In this document: positions 3,364 to 61,839 of the stretch, in pieces
How the letters are laid out: every line of letters begins with the position of its first letter
How positions within the stretch are numbered: the stretch's first letter is position 1
Assembly: GCA_964357175.1 (NCBI GenBank)
Contig: CAYHJU010000001.1
Coordinates: 32,871 to 96,870 of the forward strand
Direction of reading: 5' to 3'
Source of the DNA: an uncultured Candidatus Saccharibacteria bacterium
GTDB taxonomy: Bacteria; Patescibacteriota; Minisyncoccia; GWC2-36-17; CAYHJU01
Length of the DNA stretch: 64,000 bases
The notes under the pieces: generated by a model
Database searches by the model: none
Seen by the model: the letters and a program-made list of their open reading frames with translations, nothing else
What the model was told of the DNA's origin: nothing
Translations under genes and position numbers: made by a program

Positions 3364-3465
3364 TCTTGACGCCTTACTGTTTTAATCTTAATTGTGTTAT
3401 AATTAGTATAGATATTAATGGCTAAATATAAGTACTAGATTCTAACTCCTAAATTCTAAATTATT

Positions 3466-6638: not shown

Positions 6639-6658
6639 CCTGCCTGCCGGCAGGCAGG
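6639..6658. repeat. perfect 20-nt palindrome CCTGCCTGCCGGCAGGCAGG, member of a dispersed family
   Basis: Exact palindrome 19 nt upstream of the receiver gene ATG; an identical copy at 18480-18499 and near-identical copies at 46740 and 48575. Confidence 0.7.
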
Positions 6659-18334: not shown

Positions 18335-18459
18335 CATAAAAGAATATAGAATCTAGGAGTTAGAATTTAGCAATAGCACAAACGGATTAGAAATCAGAGC
18401 TTGTAAATTTTTTGAAAACTGATAAAATTTTTAGCGTGTAATGCGTGGCATAAAAATAT

Positions 18460-18516
18460 GCGCCCGTAGCTCAGTGGTACCTGCCTGCCGGCAGGCAGGG
18501 AGCAGCTCCCTTTTAT
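18460..18516 (+). pseudogene. truncated 5' copy of tRNA-Lys (positions ~1-37) with a 20-nt palindrome inserted in the D-loop
   Basis: GCGCCCGTAGCTCAGTGGTA[CCTGCCTGCCGGCAGGCAGG]GAGCAGCTCCCTTTTA matches the intact tRNA-Lys at 18779 up to the anticodon loop and then diverges. Even the 2 nt upstream (AT) are shared. Confidence 0.6.
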
Positions 18517-18522
18517 ATAATT

Positions 18523-18768
18523 ATGATTCAATATTACATTTATGCTATAAAGAGTTACAAAGACGGAAGATTATATGTAGGAATAAGTAGAAATCCGGAG
18601 AGTAGATTAATCGAGCACAATTCTGGAATGACAAAATCTACAAAACCTTTCCGACCGTGGAAAATTGTGTTTAAAAGATTTATTGGTGACAGGAAGTCAG
18701 CTAGGATTGAGGAAAAGAAATTAAAGTCAGGATATGGTAAAGAGTTCTTAAAAAAATTGACTAGATAA
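18523..18768 (+). CDS. stand-alone GIY-YIG nuclease domain protein (81 aa)
   Basis: YYIYAIKS...GRLYVGIS...R...EHN motif layout of the GIY-YIG fold. Stop is 10 nt before the intact tRNA-Lys. Confidence 0.75.
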   Translation: MIQYYIYAIKSYKDGRLYVGISRNPESRLIEHNSGMTKSTKPFRPWKIVFKRFIGDRKSARIEEKKLKSGYGKEFLKKLTR

Positions 18769-18778
18769 AAACAAACAT

Positions 18779-18854
18779 GCGCCCGTAGCTCAGTTGGTAG
18801 AGCAGCTCCCTTTTAAGGAGATTGTCGTAGGTTCGATTCCTACCGGGCGCACCA
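18779..18854 (+). tRNA. tRNA-Lys (anticodon UUU), CCA encoded
   Basis: Cloverleaf folded by hand: acceptor GCGCCCG/CGGGCGC, D-arm GCTCAGTTGGTAGAGC, anticodon loop CTTTTAA, T-arm GTAGGTTCGATTCCTAC, ACCA. Confidence 0.85.
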
Positions 18855-18974: not shown

Positions 18975-19028
18975 GTGTCTACACTTAAATCAGGTTCTTT
19001 AATAATATAAAACTTTCAATTTTCAGCG

Positions 19029-19085
19029 CATGAGGCGAGCGTTTAGCAGATTAAATATTTTATTCTCTTAAACGCTCGTCTCATG
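19029..19085 (+). promoter_or_regulatory. 17-bp inverted repeat (leader hairpin) at the boundary of the GC-rich segment
   Basis: CATGAGGCGAGCGTTTA ... TAAACGCTCGTCTCATG with one mismatch. A second hairpin CCCGAGCGTCTCGGG+TATTTT at ~19125-19145 looks like a terminator/attenuator. Confidence 0.45.
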
Positions 19086-19165
19086 TGAGGCTGAGTCCCA
19101 CCTGTCGGTAGGCAGGCGCCAGCCCGAGCGTCTCGGGTATTTTCAAACTGTACAGGAGGTGTGCG

Positions 19166-19945
19166 ATGAGTAAAGACGTTGTAAGCCGTAGCCTGTCGGT
19201 GCATAAAGAGCACGAAGTGCTCCTGAAGCTCGAGGCCGCAGGTCTCACCGACGAACTCGCCCAGAAAGTCATCGGCTCCAAGGACAACGATCTTGCCACG
19301 AAGGTGGTGAGGTTGATTCAGAACGGTGGCTTTGAGGCCACCTCCTCCCAGAAGCGTGCCCGTGAGATCATGGGCAATAATTTCTTCGGCGTCGAAGAGA
19401 ATTTTAAACACTTCGGCATATACTACGCTATGGGTCCAGATGCCCGAAAGGCTCTTTCCGAAGTTCCCTTCACCGAAGAAGTTCTACAGGCGCACAAGGA
19501 CACTCACGTCCTCGTCGCAACCTTCCCACTTTCCATTCTCGACATTCGTAGCAAAGCTCCACGTAGCCTCTTCTACCGTCACGAAGACGCCTGGTGCAAC
19601 AGCCAGCGCTTTGCCAAGGACAAGGGAGAAGTCGCCTGGCATCTGGTCAGAAAAACCCCAGTTCAGAACTCCACCAACAGAACCTGGTCGGATCAGCAGT
19701 CTCTCCTTTCCCAGGATGAAGAAACTCCCACGGCCCGTGTCCTGACCTACACCATCATCGGTCACTTCCTGGCAACTGGAGAACGCCTGTTCGAACACAT
19801 CTATGTCCGTACATCGTCGGTGGTTTCGGACGACGACGGGGGCAGCGTTGGCTACTTCGGCTCCGGTGGTCTGCGCGTCGACAGCCGCTGGGATGACGGT
19901 CGCAGCGGCGATCTGGGTGTCTCGTCCTCCCGGAAGTCCAACTGA
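19166..19945 (+). CDS. hypothetical protein encoded in an anomalously GC-rich (~55 % by eye) segment
   Basis: 259-aa ORF preceded by a strong SD (ACAGGAGG, 7 nt before ATG); GC-rich third codon positions; no family recognised. Confidence 0.5.
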   Translation: MSKDVVSRSLSVHKEHEVLLKLEAAGLTDELAQKVIGSKDNDLATKVVRLIQNGGFEATSSQKRAREIMGNNFFGVEENFKHFGIYYAMGPDARKALSEVPFTEEVLQAHKDTHVLVATFPLSILDIRSKAPRSLFYRHEDAWCNSQRFAKDKGEVAWHLVRKTPVQNSTNRTWSDQQSLLSQDEETPTARVLTYTIIGHFLATGERLFEHIYVRTSSVVSDDDGGSVGYFGSGGLRVDSRWDDGRSGDLGVSSSRKSN

Positions 19946-19996
19946 ACATTGATCCGCCAGCTGGCGGATTGAAAATTTGATTCTTTTGAATCATTG

Positions 19997-20035
19997 AGCC
20001 CTCGGCGTAAAAACGCCGAGGGCTTTTCTTTTTAT
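19997..20035 (+). terminator. strong rho-independent terminator
   Basis: AGCCCTCGGCGtaaaaaCGCCGAGGGCT perfect 11-bp GC stem followed by TTTCTTTTTAT. Confidence 0.75.
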
Positions 20036-20381
20036 AAATATAGTAGGTATAATTTATACATCCCGCTAATGCAGGCGCGACTACGGTTTCGTCTCGCGGG
20101 ATATATAATTTTGCCGCATTATCGCTTATTACGCACAAAAACTAAACAGCGCATATTTAAAAAATTTAAAAATCGTGTGGGAGAATATAAGTCAGGTAAA
20201 ATTAGCAGGGATAAACTTGAACAATCGTTACAGTCCTATCTGGGCACTCTGTCTCACGCTGATGCTTATGACCTAAGCGAAGATTTGAAAAATCAGGTTT
20301 GGTTTTCAGGTTAAACGATTTTAATCTGTTTGGTCGCCATCGTGATTTTACTTTTGAGACAAGCCAGCTCATGTTGGAAAA

Positions 20382-31826: not shown

Positions 31827-33353
31827 ATGCAAAACAATCTTTGCGACTTAGAGATTTTAAAGAAAAAACACGAGCATTTGCTGGAAAAAATACCGCAGGA
31901 ATTTTGGTACAGTTTAGTTTTTGACAATGCGCTTTTGGTGCCGGGGAAATCTTTGCCATCGCGCGATCCTCAAAGGGGCGGAGCTGATATTTCCGGTAAA
32001 TTTTCAAGGCACATTGATCTTAAGGTGCCACTAATCAGCTCTAACATGAATAGTGTCACAGAGGCGCGTATGGCGATAGCTATGGCGCGTCTTGGTGGAA
32101 TAGGGGTTTTGCATAGATTTTGCAGTATTGAGGACGAGGCAAAGATGGTGGCGGATGTAAAAAGGGCCGAGGGATTTAAGATAGATGATCCCTATAAAGT
32201 TCACTTTAAGGCAACCTTGGGTGAGGCCCAGGAATTAATGTCAGACAAAAACACCTCGGGACTTTTGGTGGTGGACAATAGAGATAAATTGGTGGGTATT
32301 TTCACTAGGCGCGATATGCCTATTAGGGGAGAAAAGAGTATTTTAATAAAAAATTTGATGACACCTCGAAACAAATTGGTGGTGGCGCCAGAAGATGTAA
32401 ATATTGAAAAAATAATTAAAATTTTTGATAAAACTAAAAAAGAAAAATTGCCACTCGTGGATAAAAAAGACAGGGTCGTGGGGCTTGTTACTAAAAAAGA
32501 TATAGAAAAATTGTTATTTTATAAAAATTCTACCAAAGACAAAAATAGCCGTTTGCAAGTTGCCGCGGCTATCGGTGTGACGGAAGATGAAAAAGAACGG
32601 GCGAAAGAGCTGGTGAAAATTGGAGCGGACGCTTTAGTGGTTGATATAGCCAACGGCCATTCAGACAGTTTGATAAAAATGCTTGCATTTTTAAAGAAAA
32701 AATTTCCCGAAGTTGATGTAGTGGCGGGAAATGTAGCCACATATCAGGCCGCTAAAGATTTGATAGAAGCCGGAGCAGATGCCATAAAAGTGGGAATTGG
32801 TTCAGGAGCAGCCTGCAAGACAAGAGAGCAGACTGGTTTTGGTGTTTCGCAAATTTCAGCTATCTTGCAAGCATCGGCTTTGGACAGCGGTGTGCCATTG
32901 ATTGCCGACGGCGGGGTTCGCAAACCGGCCGACTTTGTGAAAGCTTTGGCCGCGGGCGCTTCCAGCGTTATGATGGGTGGTATTTTTGCCAGTACCGATG
33001 AATCGCCCGGAATAATCGTAGACAAGGGATCGCGGGGCAAGTTTAAAATATACCAAGGGATGGCTTCATATAAGGCTGTCTTGGACAGAATTGTGCGTTC
33101 GGGAGAGGGGATCAAGATGGAAAAAATACGCGCCTTGGAGGATGTTTCAGAAAACGTAGACGAGGGCGTTTCGGGCGAGGTGCGTTATAGCGGATCAGTG
33201 GCGCAAATATTTAAAGAATATGCCGGTGGAGCGCGTTCGGCTTTTAGCTATGGATCTTCGCAAAACCTTAAAGAATTTCAAAAATCAGTCCAGTTTGTCT
33301 ATCAAACAGAAAGCGGTGCCCGCGAAAGCGCCCCGCACGATATGATTTATTGA
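31827..33353 (+). CDS. guaB: IMP dehydrogenase
   Basis: Catalytic loop GIGSGAACKTREQTGFG with active-site Cys, tandem CBS domains, TIM barrel; 508 aa. Confidence 0.9.
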   Translation: MQNNLCDLEILKKKHEHLLEKIPQEFWYSLVFDNALLVPGKSLPSRDPQRGGADISGKFSRHIDLKVPLISSNMNSVTEARMAIAMARLGGIGVLHRFCSIEDEAKMVADVKRAEGFKIDDPYKVHFKATLGEAQELMSDKNTSGLLVVDNRDKLVGIFTRRDMPIRGEKSILIKNLMTPRNKLVVAPEDVNIEKIIKIFDKTKKEKLPLVDKKDRVVGLVTKKDIEKLLFYKNSTKDKNSRLQVAAAIGVTEDEKERAKELVKIGADALVVDIANGHSDSLIKMLAFLKKKFPEVDVVAGNVATYQAAKDLIEAGADAIKVGIGSGAACKTREQTGFGVSQISAILQASALDSGVPLIADGGVRKPADFVKALAAGASSVMMGGIFASTDESPGIIVDKGSRGKFKIYQGMASYKAVLDRIVRSGEGIKMEKIRALEDVSENVDEGVSGEVRYSGSVAQIFKEYAGGARSAFSYGSSQNLKEFQKSVQFVYQTESGARESAPHDMIY

Positions 33354-46625: not shown

Positions 46626-46739
46626 ACATTTTACCCCCACATCCACCTTAGCGCAAAGAGATAAAATCGGTGTTGATTCATAGACTGATATTTTGAAATT
46701 AGAGATATTAATATGTGTTGTGGGTGTGGGGCCTGCCTG

Positions 46740-46759
46740 CCGGTAGGCAGGGTTTACTC
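46740..46759. repeat. CCTGCCTGCCGGTAGGCAGG, one-mismatch copy of the dispersed 20-nt palindrome
   Basis: Intergenic, ~115 nt upstream of the GT gene start. Confidence 0.65.
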
Positions 46760-48574: not shown

Positions 48575-48594
48575 CCTGCCTACCGGTAGGTAGG
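48575..48594. repeat. CCTGCCTACCGGTAGGTAGG variant of the dispersed palindrome, in the tmRNA promoter region
   Basis: Lies 10 nt upstream of the tmRNA 5' end, between smpB and ssrA. Confidence 0.55.
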
Positions 48595-58673: not shown

Positions 58674-60626
58674 ATGCCAAATCAAGATCGATCAGAAAAT
58701 ATAAAAAATACGCGTTATGGTGAGGGCAAATATAGGGCACTTTTTATGGCGTCTCGTGACGCCGTTATGACTCTTGAGGCGCCGTCCTGGAAGTTTACAT
58801 CTGGAAATCCGGCCACAGTAGAAATGTTTAAGGCAAAGGATGAGGCAGAATTTTTATCTTATGAGCCGTGGAAATTATCTCCCAAGCTTCAACCGGATGG
58901 TCGCGCTTCTGACAAAAAAGCTAAAGAAATGATTGAAAAAGCGATGCGCGAGGGATCTAATTTTTTTGAGTGGACGCACAAGCGTTTAAATGGCGAGAAT
59001 TTTTTCGCAGAAGTTTTATTATCAAGAGTTGAGTATGACGGAGAAGCGTTTCTTCATGCTGTGGTCAGGGATGTTACTGAGCAAAAAAAAATGGCAGAAA
59101 AGTTAAAAGAACAGGAAGAAGAAAAATTTAGGACCGTTTTTGATGGCGCAAGTGACGGAATGCTTTTGATGGATATATCGATCAAAAAATTTTACCTTTA
59201 CAATAAGGCAATTTGCCGAATGTTGGGATATGGTCCCGAAGAGATAAAAAATTTAAGCGCCACAGATATTTGTTCAAAAAACGATTCGGCTTATGTTTTG
59301 AAGCAATTCGATAGATTGACAGCAGGAGAAATTGAATCAATTGATGGTGTTGCAATAAAAAGAAAAGACAGCAGTGTTTTTTATGCTGATATTACCGGTT
59401 CTAAAATAATAATAAGCGGTAAAATGTATTGTTTGGGCATTTTCAGAGATGTAACTGAACATAAAAAAATGGAGGAAGAGCTCAAGAACAAATATGAAGA
59501 GATAGAAAAAGAAAAAGAAGAAACTAGGTTGTTGGCTCAAAATTTGGAGAAATTTAAGCTTGCTGTGGAAAGCGCCTCTGATCATATAGTGATTACTGAC
59601 GCAGAAGGCATTATTTTATATGCGAATAAAGCAACAGAACATATCACGGGGTATCCAATAAGGGAAATTATTGGAGCGAAGGCAGGAAAACCCTGGGGTG
59701 GACTAATGGACAAAGATTTTTATGTAAAAATGTGGAAAGTGATTAAACAAGACAAGAAAACTTTTAAAGGAGAAATTAAAAATAAACGTAAAAATGGGCA
59801 AATTTATGATGCTGAAACGAGCATTTCTCCCATATTTAATAAAAATGGCGAGGTGGAATTTTTTGTTAGTATAGAACGCGACATAACAACAGTAAAAGAA
59901 ATTGATCGGGCAAAAAGTGAGTTTGTTTCTCTGGCGTCGCACCAGCTTCGTACTCCGCTTACAGCAATCAGTTGGTATTTAGAAGAGGTGTTTGATGAAA
60001 AAACTGGAAAGCTTAATAAACAACAAAAAGAATATTTAAACGAGGTACAAAATAGTAGCCGCAGAATGATCGATCTAATAAACAACCTTTTGAATCTTTC
60101 CAGAATTGAGCTTGGCACATTTGCTATTATGCCAAGATCCACCGATTTGGTTGAATTGGCTGAAGACGCGATAAAAGACGTTGTCCTACAGGCGAGATTA
60201 AAAAAAATCAAAATAGAAAAAGATTACGAAGAGGGCTTATCAAAAATTAATCTCGATCCAAAGTTAACTGCGATGGTTTTTCAAAATCTTGTTTCTAATG
60301 CAATAAAATATACTCCAGAGAACGGGGAAATAAACATAAAAATAAAAAAAGAAGGCGAAAATGCGCTTATCGTGGTAAAAGATACCGGCTACGGAATACC
60401 CAAAGACGCACAATCTAAAATTTTTACTAAATTTTATCGTGCCGACAATGTTCGCACACAGGATCCCAACGGTAACGGATTGGGGCTTTATATTGTAAAA
60501 GCGATAGTAGAAAAATCCAAGGGAAAAATCTGGTTTGAGTCTGAAGAGGACAAGAGCCTGCCTGCCGGTAGGCATGGCACGACATTCTTTGTTTCTTTAC
60601 CTTTGGGAAAAGCCGAAAGTAAATAA
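58674..60626 (+). CDS. cytoplasmic sensor histidine kinase with three PAS domains
   Basis: No TM segments; PAS/PAC repeats; HisKA H-box SHQLRTPLTAISWY; HATPase_c N/G boxes (NAIKYT, GNGLGL). Confidence 0.8.
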   Translation: MPNQDRSENIKNTRYGEGKYRALFMASRDAVMTLEAPSWKFTSGNPATVEMFKAKDEAEFLSYEPWKLSPKLQPDGRASDKKAKEMIEKAMREGSNFFEWTHKRLNGENFFAEVLLSRVEYDGEAFLHAVVRDVTEQKKMAEKLKEQEEEKFRTVFDGASDGMLLMDISIKKFYLYNKAICRMLGYGPEEIKNLSATDICSKNDSAYVLKQFDRLTAGEIESIDGVAIKRKDSSVFYADITGSKIIISGKMYCLGIFRDVTEHKKMEEELKNKYEEIEKEKEETRLLAQNLEKFKLAVESASDHIVITDAEGIILYANKATEHITGYPIREIIGAKAGKPWGGLMDKDFYVKMWKVIKQDKKTFKGEIKNKRKNGQIYDAETSISPIFNKNGEVEFFVSIERDITTVKEIDRAKSEFVSLASHQLRTPLTAISWYLEEVFDEKTGKLNKQQKEYLNEVQNSSRRMIDLINNLLNLSRIELGTFAIMPRSTDLVELAEDAIKDVVLQARLKKIKIEKDYEEGLSKINLDPKLTAMVFQNLVSNAIKYTPENGEINIKIKKEGENALIVVKDTGYGIPKDAQSKIFTKFYRADNVRTQDPNGNGLGLYIVKAIVEKSKGKIWFESEEDKSLPAGRHGTTFFVSLPLGKAESK

Positions 60627-60654: not shown

Positions 60655-61839
60655 ATGCCAATCCAATCATCTATTCTCAACGCCATCTTTGACACCACAC
60701 TGGCATTGTATAGGGTTGCAGATAAGATTTTTGACGACAATTTTTTTAAAAAGAAATTGCGCAGATGTGGCCTAGAGATTCTAATCTTGGTTCAAGCTGT
60801 TTTTTCTGGTGATAATTTTGATCAAAACGCCCACTTTGCTTTGGAGAAAAAAATAGATGACATTTTATTATTATTAAAATTTGGGAAGTCTTATTACCAT
60901 TTAGTTAATCCCCTTAATTTTTCTATACTAATAAATTCTTATGAATCACTACAACCGGAAATCTATCAAAGTTTGGCTTCAGTAGAAAAGGCGACAAAAG
61001 CTCGTTTTGTTAAAAATACGGAGAACGAGTCCGATCAACCAACCAAGGATTTTATGGAAAAAGATGAATTTGTATATTTAGCCTCTCACCAATTGCGAAC
61101 CCCGTTGTCTGCGATTAGTTGGTATGCTGAGATGCTTTTGTCCGAAGATGCTGGCAATATCAATCAACAACAGAAAAAGTATTTGGAAGAAGTTTATAAT
61201 AACAGTCAAAAAATGTCGCAGCTAATAAATACTCTCTTAAACATTTCTCGAATTGAATCGGGATGTTTCGCTGTGGAAATAAAACCACTCAATTTTTCTG
61301 TGATTTTAGATGATGTATTGCTGGAGCTTGATCATGAAATTTCTAATAAAAAAATTACTATTGAAAAAATTTATAACCCTACGCCAACAGTAAAAGCCGA
61401 TTATCATTTGGCATATGTTATTTTTCAAAACTTAATATCTAATTCCATCAAATATACTCCTGAGGGAGGGGAGATAAAAATTGAAGTTAATTTTTTAAAA
61501 AACGAAAAAGAGATTAATCTTAAAATAAAAGAATGCGTTTTGATTAAAATTTCAGATAATGGTTATGGTATTCCAAAAAATCAGCAAGAAAAAGTTTTTA
61601 CTAAGTTATTTCGGGGAGACAACATTAAAAACAAGGATTCCGCAGGATTTGGCATCGGTTTGTACACGGTAAAATTAATGTCAGATCGCTGTGGGTTTAA
61701 AATATGGTTTGAGTCTGAAGAGGACAGTGGTCTGTCTGCCAGTAGGCATGGCACGACCTTTTATATCGCTATTCCCTTGGAGGGAATGAAAGAAAAAGAG
61801 GGTTCGGAAGATAAAAAAAATGAGCATAGTTTAAGTTAA
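60655..61839 (+). CDS. histidine kinase (no PAS; N-terminal domain of unknown function)
   Basis: H-box SHQLRTPLSAISWY, N-box NSIKYT, G-box GFGIGL. Start set at the ATG at 60655 to avoid overlapping the preceding kinase. Confidence 0.75.
   Translation: MPIQSSILNAIFDTTLALYRVADKIFDDNFFKKKLRRCGLEILILVQAVFSGDNFDQNAHFALEKKIDDILLLLKFGKSYYHLVNPLNFSILINSYESLQPEIYQSLASVEKATKARFVKNTENESDQPTKDFMEKDEFVYLASHQLRTPLSAISWYAEMLLSEDAGNINQQQKKYLEEVYNNSQKMSQLINTLLNISRIESGCFAVEIKPLNFSVILDDVLLELDHEISNKKITIEKIYNPTPTVKADYHLAYVIFQNLISNSIKYTPEGGEIKIEVNFLKNEKEINLKIKECVLIKISDNGYGIPKNQQEKVFTKLFRGDNIKNKDSAGFGIGLYTVKLMSDRCGFKIWFESEEDSGLSASRHGTTFYIAIPLEGMKEKEGSEDKKNEHSLS

Follow-up and report, generated by a model that had tools for sequence, protein, structure and literature searches.

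A candidate selfish nuclease–hairpin cassette in a tRNA-Lys transcription unit of a Patescibacteria genome

Introduction

Repetitive extragenic palindromic (REP) elements are paired, as REPINs, with REP-associated tyrosine transposases (RAYTs), which are HUH/Y1 enzymes of the IS200/IS605-like kind, and further palindromic mini-elements that enter genes include Rickettsia palindromic elements, mitochondrial GC clusters, and double-hairpin elements. Repetitive elements that form hairpins are the topic of one published study (PMC2800124). A second kind of selfish DNA is represented by the mitochondrial mobile endonuclease open reading frames (mORFs) known from atp6 of Allomyces and from atp6, atp9, cox2, and nad3 of Glomus. 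These mORFs carry a replacement terminus for the gene they enter and leave the native terminus behind as a remnant, and their enzymes are of the LAGLIDADG type or, in atp9, of the GIY-YIG type (PMC3630166). Here we analyze a locus that combines these known kinds, selfish endonuclease open reading frames (ORFs) with compensating gene duplication on the one hand and palindromic repeat systems on the other. It lies within a 64,000-nucleotide stretch (positions 32,871 to 96,870) of contig CAYHJU010000001.1 from an uncultured Candidatus Saccharibacteria bacterium (assembly GCA_964357175.1), which we refer to as the window, and consists of a truncated, hairpin-interrupted tRNA-Lys copy, a gene for an 81-aa GIY-YIG nuclease, and the intact tRNA-Lys gene.

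A first-pass annotation of the window had seen in this arrangement not a simple pseudogene but the footprint of a mobile cassette that targets tRNA genes, or else a selfish nuclease that makes use of a tRNA promoter. That reading is supported by an empty allele, by tRNA-linked relatives, by the presence of a different nuclease clade at the orthologous locus of a close relative (L084), and by a promoter-like site upstream. On balance, we consider it probable that the segment is one copy of a widespread selfish nuclease–hairpin cassette that resides in tRNA transcription units, with the tRNA kept alive by partial duplication.

Results

Organization of the tRNA-Lys locus

Functional tRNAs were located with ARAGORN and Rfam and repeats by a direct-repeat search; coordinates are window positions (Table 1). 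A duplicated tRNA-Lys 5′ end, a palindrome in its D-loop, resumption of the tRNA sequence up to the anticodon loop, an ORF, and the intact tRNA had all been described in the first-pass annotation, and every measurable detail was borne out. The stretch 18454–18475, which comprises six leader nucleotides and tRNA-Lys positions 1–16, recurs at 18773–18794 with 21 of 22 nucleotides identical. GGTA (18476–18479) likewise matches, with one D-loop T absent from the upstream copy (CAGT-GGTA vs. CAGTTGGTA). The second repeat, 18500–18515, is identical to 18800–18815 at all 16 positions and covers the 3′ strand of the D-stem, the 5′ strand of the anticodon stem, and the loop as far as CTTTTA. Both repeats are in register, and the upstream copy retains 36 of 37 tRNA positions, close to the 37 of 38 that had been predicted. 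Between them, at the GGTA/GAGC junction, a perfect 20-nt palindrome (hereafter pal) is inserted cleanly and without target duplication. Folded as single-stranded DNA, as the first-pass annotation had proposed, pal forms an 8-bp stem of −8 kcal/mol.

The ORF begins 7 nt after tRNA position 37, the position of anticodon-loop introns, and its stop codon lies 10 nt 5′ of the intact tRNA, as had been noted. Because a complete second tRNA copy follows the ORF, tRNA function is kept; the half-copy upstream, which bears the hairpin, is dead. The only promoter-like site found for the unit lies upstream of the tRNA fragment. It is conserved in loci L085 and L084 and is unchanged in the empty allele, where it stands directly 5′ of the intact tRNA.

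The junction between pal and the second part of the tRNA fragment also creates a terminator-like stem (AGGGAG-CAG-CTCCCT, then TTTTAT; 18497–18511). It is not conserved in L003 or at tRNA-Asn loci and is therefore not treated as functional; it is probably incidental, and the candidate terminator was dropped. Downstream of tRNA-Lys, the degenerate pal-family hairpin at 19097–19116 may be what erosion has left of an older tRNA copy, although this is uncertain; clear downstream tRNA remnants are present in L003 and L033 for comparison.

Empty and filled alleles in one population

The population to which the window belongs is Patescibacteria from Hainich groundwater well H41, and contigs carrying other alleles were found through the neighboring 179-aa protein. 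In contig L104, and in two similar places, the promoter and leader (...GGCATAAAAATAT) run directly into an intact tRNA-Lys. Window-like filled alleles (L105, L106, L108, and L110) come from the same well. The comparison of orthologous loci that the first-pass annotation had called for thus yields an empty allele that is exactly 319 nt shorter, the difference lying between promoter and tRNA and the junction falling inside the direct repeat. The flanks of empty and filled alleles are 99.8–99.9% identical, with five differing positions in 3.2 kb, no more than between two filled alleles.

The cassette at the orthologous locus L003 is 88.9% identical to that of the window, matching the divergence of the flanking genes, which argues that the Lys cassette is old. 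Given that age, the empty allele would most simply reflect a recent seamless loss through the direct repeats, whose lengths of 16–22 nt make such a loss, and with it the restoration of a normal tRNA gene, possible. A very recent gain by recombination is a possible alternative source of the polymorphism. Between the window and L003, the ratio of nonsynonymous to synonymous substitution rates (dN/dS) is 0.066 at a dS of 0.60, and the Lys-locus ORF is under strong purifying selection. The variable loop of the intact tRNA-Lys is itself polymorphic in this population, L105 having GAGATGGTC and L106, like the window, GAGATTGTC; the G variant also occurs in L003 and L010.

Distribution and layout across genomes

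A genome scan that covered one genome per species and the motif of the subfamily to which the Lys-locus ORF belongs (subfamily 1) returned 33 loci, every one of them tRNA-associated and with a truncated tRNA copy bearing the pal hairpin. The hosts are Patescibacteria (many), Omnitrophota, Flavobacteriaceae, and Sphingobacteriales, and they include the cultured Flavobacteriaceae Flagellimonas crocea, Allomuricauda sp. CP2A, and Muricauda sp. TY007. The common form, found at 23 loci, consists of a 5′ fragment, the ORF, and an intact tRNA (Lys, Asn, Arg-CCT, Leu-UAA, Leu-CAA, Phe, or Gly) that starts within about 60 nt. Three loci and one partial locus are mirror images, in which the intact tRNA comes first and is followed by the ORF and a 3′ fragment with pal (Arg-CCT, Ile); L032 holds a tandem array of two such tRNA-first units. 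At five loci, the tRNA 5′ end after the ORF is truncated or is continued by a confirmed or likely group I intron, and one locus ends at a contig edge.

In 17 of 21 common-form loci the fragment extends as far as the anticodon loop, with the ATG 0–13 nt further on, so that the ORF sits where an anticodon-loop intron would sit, and the right-hand junction falls at the tRNA 5′ end (−27 to +1). All relatives of the ORF at 66–93% identity show a tRNA-Lys or tRNA-Asn 5′ fragment, the same pal, the ORF, and an intact tRNA, and their stop codon is often the TAG at tRNA positions 8–10. The fragment, whose absence beside related ORFs the first-pass annotation had regarded as a contrary sign, was present beside every relative examined. 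The three-part layout occurs in more than 40 related loci, and at about 30 loci, in several phyla, a relative of the ORF has the pal 20-mer next to it. At roughly 70% of loci, fragment and adjacent tRNA are identical or nearly so.

At L003 (Lys), L033 (Arg), and L043 (Ser, subfamily 2), an older tRNA has left a 5′ remnant on one side of the ORF and intact tRNA and a 3′ remnant on the other; the two acceptor halves pair, and hairpins are present in both remnants. The intact central tRNA has an acceptor stem unlike that of the remnants, and the resident tRNAs at these loci appear to have been replaced or displaced. L048 has a downstream tRNA remnant too, and the three-part remnant state is seen in about five of 30 loci. 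Differing acceptor stems between remnant and intact copies were seen in L003, L033, and L043; the window copies are identical apart from one indel. A model in which the element is pal, the ORF, and tRNA positions 1–20 inserted as one piece at the pal site was rejected: it predicts chimeric acceptor stems, and the intact tRNAs of L003 and L033 are self-consistent.

Group I introns (RF00028) interrupt the tRNA-Asn downstream of the cassette in L019 (1464–1747) and L042 (1493–1714), where two invaders of tRNA genes therefore coexist at one tRNA-Asn gene. L015 and L017 hold intron-like sequences below the Rfam threshold.

A profile search of 1.84 billion cluster representatives found 16,480 relatives of the nuclease at E ≤ 1e-3 and 3,457 at E ≤ 1e-10. 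In a tree of the ORFs (78 aligned columns), clades tend to group by tRNA type. The scan of viral contigs with the protein profile returned no relatives, and phage carriage is therefore not supported; one IMG/VR contig (L080) has a distant cassette.

The nuclease

The Lys-locus ORF matches the Pfam GIY-YIG family (PF01541) with E = 4e-14, in agreement with the first-pass call of an 81-aa GIY-YIG gene. The two GIY-YIG ORFs of the window score 53.2 and 58.3 bits against a curated cutoff of 22.6, which two proteins of L084 (G3 and G4) also exceed. Columns invariant in 18 aligned sequences include Y7, Y18, G20, R28, E31, H32, N33, and E64, and we presume that the conserved tyrosine pair, the arginine, and a metal-binding glutamate have the catalytic roles that they have in I-TevI, UvrC, and Slx1.

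Searched against the PDB, the family profile finds the UPF0213 structures 1ywl (E = 3e-10) and 1zg2 and then SLX1 chains. The AlphaFold (AF2) model, with a predicted local distance difference test score (pLDDT) of 90.7, has its best fold match in the Slx1 nuclease domain (query-based TM-score, TMq, 0.72–0.75; root-mean-square deviation 1.8–2.3 Å), and UvrC is far behind. Both the profile and the model thus place the predicted nuclease nearest to the Slx1/UPF0213 structure-specific nucleases. Pfam and the model show a nuclease core only, with no second domain and no linked sequence-specific DNA-binding module, and the C-terminal RING/zinc-finger expected of an Slx1 orthologue is lacking from the 81-aa protein. 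Slx1 is a structure-specific nuclease that cuts branched DNA such as flaps and junctions, as PDB titles also indicate. Since Slx1-type nucleases cut branched DNA, a hairpin-linked substrate for the cassette enzyme is plausible by analogy. A PADLOC search gave no meaningful match to a defense system, NCBIfam gave one match, below its cutoff, to a group I intron endonuclease model, and there are weak matches to phage homing-endonuclease families.

Gene callers often extend ORFs of these subfamilies through the upstream sequence, which has placed spurious N-termini such as LPAGRQ and AELVD in databases. Among subfamily-1 calls of at least 92 aa, 30 of 99 contain translated pal (LPAGRQ, PACRQA, CLPAGR, or close variants), a peptide found in none of 16 extended calls from subfamily 2. 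Other extended calls contain translated tRNA arms: AELVD from the D-arm of tRNA-Leu, and FES or GSIP from T-arms.

Nuclease clade and hairpin type

The window holds only two GIY-YIG ORFs, and each abuts the 5′ end of a tRNA on its own strand, an association that the first-pass annotation had suggested looking for. It had also reported the same layout at tRNA-Asp; the recurrence is confirmed, with differences of detail in nuclease clade, in the hairpin, which is double, and in fragment length. The Asp-locus protein is 34% identical to that of the Lys locus. After its double hairpin only about five further tRNA nucleotides (TAGCC) precede the ORF, whose stop codon lies 1 nt 5′ of tRNA-Asp; callers extend this gene upstream through the hairpins and the tRNA fragment, giving a 107-aa call that starts MDRWCHPTGGHPQGD. 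The double-hairpin module occurs at four sites in the window, against 0.03 expected, and the Asp cassette was filled in all seven contigs recovered. A consensus match to the same promoter-like TGATAAAATTTTT is present at this locus.

Relatives of the Asp-locus protein (59–67% identity) precede tRNA-Ser or tRNA-Glu, and the matching 5′ fragment there has two 15-nt hairpins. Hairpins of this subfamily 2 (Asp, Ser, Glu) always come as two and follow the pattern YCASCC-nnn-GGSTGR, with stems that vary compensatorily (TCA...TGA vs. CCA...TGG) and loops that also vary.

The flanks of L084 are 85–89% identical to the window, and its orthologous tRNA-Lys locus is occupied by a third GIY-YIG clade (about 31% identity to the others) with a third hairpin type (TCCGCCAGCCGGCGGA), which lies in the D-loop of that same GCGCCCGTAGCTCA fragment. 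Hairpin type changes with nuclease clade, even at an orthologous tRNA-Lys locus, and cassettes thus turn over as nuclease–hairpin pairs.

Two further observations concern L084. The tRNA-Lys after the cassette is truncated at 3380–3440, where its positions 1–22 are fused to GTTCG and another hairpin. No 3′ half of tRNA-Lys was found in the 5.5 kb examined, which implies that a functional tRNA-Lys lies elsewhere in that genome. A fourth GIY-YIG ORF (2182–2500; 85 aa), 53% identical to the Asp-locus protein, lies between gatA and the gene for the 179-aa protein, two genes that only 5 nt separate in the window. The 15-nt inverted repeats CCCCCACACCTAATT and AATTAGGTGTGGGGG stand on either side of this ORF, whose insertion adds four codons to gatA, so that the same kind of module has a non-tRNA site as well.

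Solo and dispersed hairpins

Within the window the pal 20-mer is present in five copies at up to three mismatches, against none in shuffles, and a degenerate pattern finds seven pal-family sites where none is expected. The variant near transfer-messenger RNA (tmRNA; 48575–48594) adjoins another short hairpin (CCCACA...TGTGGG), and no duplication of tmRNA was seen. Two adjacent ORFs that appear to be paralogues, putative histidine kinases, carry in-frame pal-family peptides at the same position near their C-terminal ends (...ESEEDKSLPAGRHGTTF... and ...ESEEDSGLSASRHGTTF...), which suggests that an old hairpin insertion persisted as a loop of the protein and was later copied when the gene duplicated.

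Where pal interrupts tRNA copies, contiguous tRNA sequence flanks it, with neither duplication nor deletion. The sites vary (insertion point marked by a caret): GGTA^GAGC is the commonest, and GGTA^GCTC, the D-loop of tRNA-Leu, GGGA^CTCAAAA, CTTA^TAAAG in an anticodon loop, TTAAG^GAGA, and a T-loop are also used. Nested and tandem pals occur in L013, L014, L023, and L036, and in L085, unlike in the window, a pal variant lies immediately upstream of the tRNA-Lys promoter. The palindrome is the clade-specific partner of the nuclease and a dispersed mini-element in its own right, not an incidental disruption.

The exact 20-mer is also found in 35 IMG/VR contigs, mostly of high GC content. In two of these (64–68% GC), pal lies in the variable region of a tRNA-Met: in L073 (2239–2330) ARAGORN still calls a 92-nt tRNA, and the same pal-bearing tRNA-Met in L050 (around 8616) has part of its T-arm deleted. 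Here pal might be tolerated as a long variable arm. In L049, L051, L057, L072, and other high-GC IMG/VR loci, pal often sits within short imperfect tandem-repeat tracts in which the same 7–14 nt flank it on both sides (e.g., CACAGAGA[pal]CACAGAGA), with no GIY-YIG gene nearby.

Several other roles for pal were considered and set aside. Its sequence is constant whatever the flanks, contrary to a palindromic repair scar of the P-nucleotide kind. The idea that it serves solely to break repeat homology for stability is weakened, because the tRNA-first form leaves 50 nt of uninterrupted repeat and tandem arrays form. A DNA-uptake sequence is unlikely for a motif that is common to several phyla and covaries with nuclease clade within one genome. 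By eye, the G·T variant of pal falls on the two strands in a ratio of 5 to 1, a sample of loci too small to use.

Region downstream of tRNA-Lys

Directly downstream of tRNA-Lys lies a GC-rich island (19000–20050; 50–59% GC against a background of about 37%) that contains a 259-aa ORF without a Pfam match. The island is missing in L003, and a different 218-aa ORF takes its place in L084, which marks this as a variable region beside the tRNA. Upstream of the 259-aa ORF is a long inverted repeat (19029–19085) with 27-nt arms, 85% complementary, and a 3-nt loop.

Table 1. Positions of the cassette components, tRNA genes, and pal-family hairpins in the window.
Feature	Position	Strand	Remarks
Promoter-like site of the tRNA-Lys unit	18401–18428	+	TTGTAA, 16-nt spacer, TG-extended TAAAAT (TGaTAAAAT); consensus match only
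Truncated tRNA-Lys copy, part 1	18454–18479	+	6 leader nt and tRNA positions 1–20, minus one D-loop T
pal, perfect 20-nt palindrome CCTGCCTGCCGGCAGGCAGG	18480–18499	+	Between D-loop GGTA and D-stem GAGC; partner of GIY-YIG subfamily 1
Truncated tRNA-Lys copy, part 2	18500–18515	+	Positions 22–37, ending inside the anticodon loop
AT-rich 7-nt linker between tRNA-Lys fragment and ORF ATG		+	Sequence
GIY-YIG nuclease gene, stand-alone, 81 aa, subfamily 1, Slx1/UPF0213-like	18523–18768	+	Pfam PF01541
Leader of intact tRNA-Lys, partial repeat of the native leader	18769–18778	+	Repeat search
Intact tRNA-Lys(UUU), functional copy	18779–18854	+	ARAGORN, Rfam
Degenerate pal-family hairpin CCCACCTGTCGGTAGGCAGG	19097–19116	.	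243 nt downstream of tRNA-Lys; preceded by GCTGAGT
Truncated tRNA-Asp copy	36562–36549	−	2 leader nt and positions 1–12; repeats ATGGACCGTTGGTG, 14/14
Double hairpin, two 15-nt units CCACCCTACGGGTGG and TCACCCGCAGGGTGA	36548–36519	−	Partner hairpins of GIY-YIG subfamily 2
GIY-YIG nuclease gene, stand-alone, 82 aa, subfamily 2	36487–36239	−	Pfam PF01541
Intact tRNA-Asp(GUC)	36237–36162	−	ARAGORN, Rfam
Solo pal, perfect copy, intergenic spacer	6639–6658	.	
Solo pal, 1 mismatch	46732–46751	.	
Solo pal variant, 10 nt upstream of the tmRNA 5′ end	48575–48594	.	
pal variant inside a putative histidine-kinase ORF, in frame as LPAGRH	60557–60576	.	
Decayed pal variant, equivalent position in the adjacent paralogous kinase ORF	61731–61750	.	

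Discussion

A probable selfish cassette in tRNA transcription units

The cassette that we propose has three linked parts, an approximately 250-bp minimal gene for a GIY-YIG enzyme of the Slx1/UPF0213 type, a clade-specific hairpin or palindrome, and a partial tandem duplication of the host tRNA gene. The ORF would have no promoter of its own and would be read from the tRNA promoter, and the tRNA would be freed by normal 5′ processing. Wedged in this way between the promoter and an essential single-copy tRNA, the cassette may be hard to silence without harm. How it moves we can only infer from the arrangement of its parts. With lower confidence, we suggest that the nuclease is structure-specific, its substrate being either the cognate hairpin or tRNA-gene DNA in folded form. 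Repair of the break through tRNA homology (and, within a species, through flanking homology) would then copy the cassette and make the duplications and remnants, in the way that mORFs spread along with a replacement piece of the gene they enter. The hairpins would in addition spread in trans as solo insertions that duplicate no target sequence, much as REP elements do with their RAYT enzyme.

Several points weigh against this proposal. The hairpin is parted from the ORF by local tRNA sequence, so that hairpin and ORF are not one contiguous inserted block, and the constant presence of a hairpin, always proximal to the ORF, in every dead tRNA copy is left unexplained by the model. An 81-aa protein without a separate DNA-binding domain makes sequence-specific homing unlikely. 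The intact tRNA retains the D-loop sequence of the copy that the hairpin has hit, so that there would be no obvious immunity if the tRNA gene were the target. Both the age of the Lys cassette, judged from its divergence from L003, and the strong purifying selection on its ORF would also fit a gene useful to the host. The match to the promoter consensus is no better than in shuffles, the grouping of clades by tRNA type rests on a short alignment, and for the majority of exact pal copies in IMG/VR contigs no GIY-YIG gene lies within reach. Finally, the whole mechanism is drawn from sequence.

The purifying selection and the vertical persistence of the cassette over the divergence of its flanks lend some weight to a domesticated host gene, a Slx1-like repair or maintenance enzyme expressed from tRNA operons whose hairpins would be mRNA elements (5′ or 3′ stabilizers, or translational controls) and whose tRNA fragments would be by-products of recombination. 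Such a gene would also account for hairpins that always lie close to the ORF, 12–43 nt before the ATG or, in the tRNA-first form, 4–7 nt after the stop, and for compensatory changes that preserve stem pairing, and hairpins in the 5′ untranslated regions of free-standing endonuclease genes do control translation (PMC2677866). We nevertheless consider it unlikely, since a hairpin identical at 20 of 20 positions across phyla exceeds the needs of an RNA stem, and solo hairpins are dispersed in genomes, even within coding sequence. Nor does a host gene lead one to expect presence and absence within one population, that a close relative has another clade and that clade's hairpin in its place, that cassettes stand in tandem arrays and older ones persist as nested remnants, or that the window alone has two clades with two hairpin types. 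A classical free-standing homing endonuclease, which would cut naive tRNA genes and be copied in by double-strand-break repair, the hairpin destroying the recognition site in the leftover fragment, seems to us quite improbable. Here the GIY-YIG fold, the weak matches to phage homing-endonuclease families, the tendency of ORF clades to follow tRNA type, and a polymorphism of presence and absence (319 nt) at a defined site between close relatives all agree with expectation, as does the precedent of T4 SegB, a GIY-YIG homing enzyme in a tRNA gene cluster (PMC2330249). Set against these are a nuclease core that has no DNA-binding domain, the presence of one subfamily at Lys, Asn, Arg, Leu, Phe, Gly, and Ile genes of differing sequence, the unchanged putative site in the intact neighboring tRNA, and the fact that the constant element across loci is the hairpin and not the tRNA sequence.

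The position of the ORF in most loci invites comparison with an anticodon-loop group I intron carrying a GIY-YIG gene, of which the cassette would be a relic after loss of the ribozyme and rescue of the tRNA through recombination with a copy free of the intron. Patescibacteria tRNA genes commonly hold group I introns (PMC13011429), and the below-cutoff NCBIfam match is to an endonuclease of such introns. This origin is nonetheless very improbable, because neither the Lys nor the Asp locus gives an Intron_gpI signal at E ≤ 1 in a search that does find the introns of L019 and L042, and Rfam reports tRNAs only, with no ribozyme or known leader, at both window loci. Moreover, merely 7–10 nt flank the ORF and a complete tRNA follows it, true group I introns are present alongside cassettes in the downstream tRNA-Asn of L019 and L042, the mirror-image form and the hairpins go unexplained, and the endonucleases reported from tRNA-Asn introns in Patescibacteria are of the HNH type and not GIY-YIG (PMC13011429). 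A chance association of a tRNA pseudogene born of tandem duplication with an unrelated REP-like repeat and an unrelated ORF, or in a variant the scar of an integrase att site, is hardly credible: pal does occur elsewhere in the genome, and partial tRNA duplications are, as is generally known, common beside integrated elements, but the three-part layout recurs in more than 40 independent loci, so that comparative data already contradict it, and both GIY-YIG ORFs of the window are so arranged. The att-site variant would in addition call for an integrase gene, of which there is none in or beside the 319 nt, and for duplication of the 3′ end instead of the 5′ half.

Returning to the selfish cassette, a bolder version, which we regard as possible but doubtful, is that it represents a new class of prokaryotic mobile element, in which a minimal Slx1-like nuclease recognizes its cognate hairpin, mobilizes both the hairpin and its own gene, and remodels or replaces tRNA genes across phyla, thereby explaining many small GIY-YIG genes. 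The hairpin would then move in a REP-like manner, without target duplication and with a preference for the loops of folded tRNA-gene DNA, by means of an enzyme unlike an HUH transposase or an integrase, and a large share of the thousands of small genes annotated as "GIY-YIG nuclease family protein" would be accounted for. In the searchable full-text literature, a 2026 survey of introns in Patescibacteria tRNA genes (PMC13011429) included, we found neither the cassette arrangement nor the pal sequence described.

In Patescibacteria and Bacteroidota, small stand-alone GIY-YIG genes rank with the commonest ORFs that lack an explanation. If the proposal is right, these genes can be understood as selfish occupants of tRNA operons, every one accompanied by a hairpin of its own; stray tRNA fragments and the spurious "LPAGRQ" and "AELVD" extensions are explained; and a 20-nt palindrome unchanged across phyla is identified. 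Because cultured Flagellimonas and Allomuricauda strains carry the cassette, the system is tractable and would allow one to study how a bare structure-specific nuclease core, together with a hairpin, can make genes mobile and tRNA genes turn over. The cassette is also relevant to annotating and reconstructing the tRNA sets of reduced genomes.

Comparison with known systems

One of the two nearest documented parallels is with mORFs, in which, as in the cassette, an endonuclease ORF lies within an essential gene or at its end, the gene stays whole thanks to a duplicated piece, and the displaced native piece survives as a dead remnant. The window and more than 40 loci likewise have an endonuclease ORF between an intact host gene and a displaced partial copy. 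In mORFs the ORF and the gene are co-transcribed, which the position of the promoter-like site suggests for the cassette as well, and some of the pieces brought in are foreign, which holds for L003, L033, and L043 as well. Unlike mORFs, the cassette occupies a bacterial chromosome, sits at tRNA genes and not at protein genes, and usually duplicates the 5′ half; its enzyme is a bare 81-aa Slx1-like core, and a clade-specific hairpin always marks the dead copy.

With REP/RAYT systems, the other near parallel, the cassette shares dispersed short palindromes whose type tracks the clade of the enzyme, an enzyme gene flanked by its own palindrome, and insertion without target duplication. It differs in that its enzyme is GIY-YIG and not HUH/Y1, that it resides in tRNA units with tRNA duplication, and that its 20-mer is common to several phyla. 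The best sequence and fold matches of the nuclease itself are to Slx1 and UPF0213 structures (PDB 6seh, 7cq3, 1zg2, and 1ywl); unlike Slx1, it has neither a RING/zinc-finger domain nor an Slx4 partner. We know of no assigned function, and no reported link to tRNA genes, for the UPF0213 proteins in the PDB.

The Seg GIY-YIG homing endonucleases of phage T4, including SegB in the T4 tRNA cluster (PMC2330249), resemble the cassette in fold, in being intergenic selfish genes, and in their association with a tRNA region. The Seg enzymes exceed 200 aa and have DNA-binding modules, and they are not known to cause tRNA duplication or to have a cognate hairpin. Integrase islands and prophages at tRNA genes similarly occupy a tRNA gene and restore it with a carried or duplicated segment, but they duplicate the 3′ end, extend over several kilobases or more, and encode an integrase, whereas the 319-nt insert holds only the 81-aa ORF and duplicates the 5′ half. 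Like the palindromic mini-elements that enter genes, finally, pal is a short GC-rich hairpin in an AT-rich genome, found between genes, in RNA genes, and in frame in protein genes (the two window kinases); it is set apart from them by being much shorter (20 nt), common to several phyla, and tied to a specific nuclease clade.

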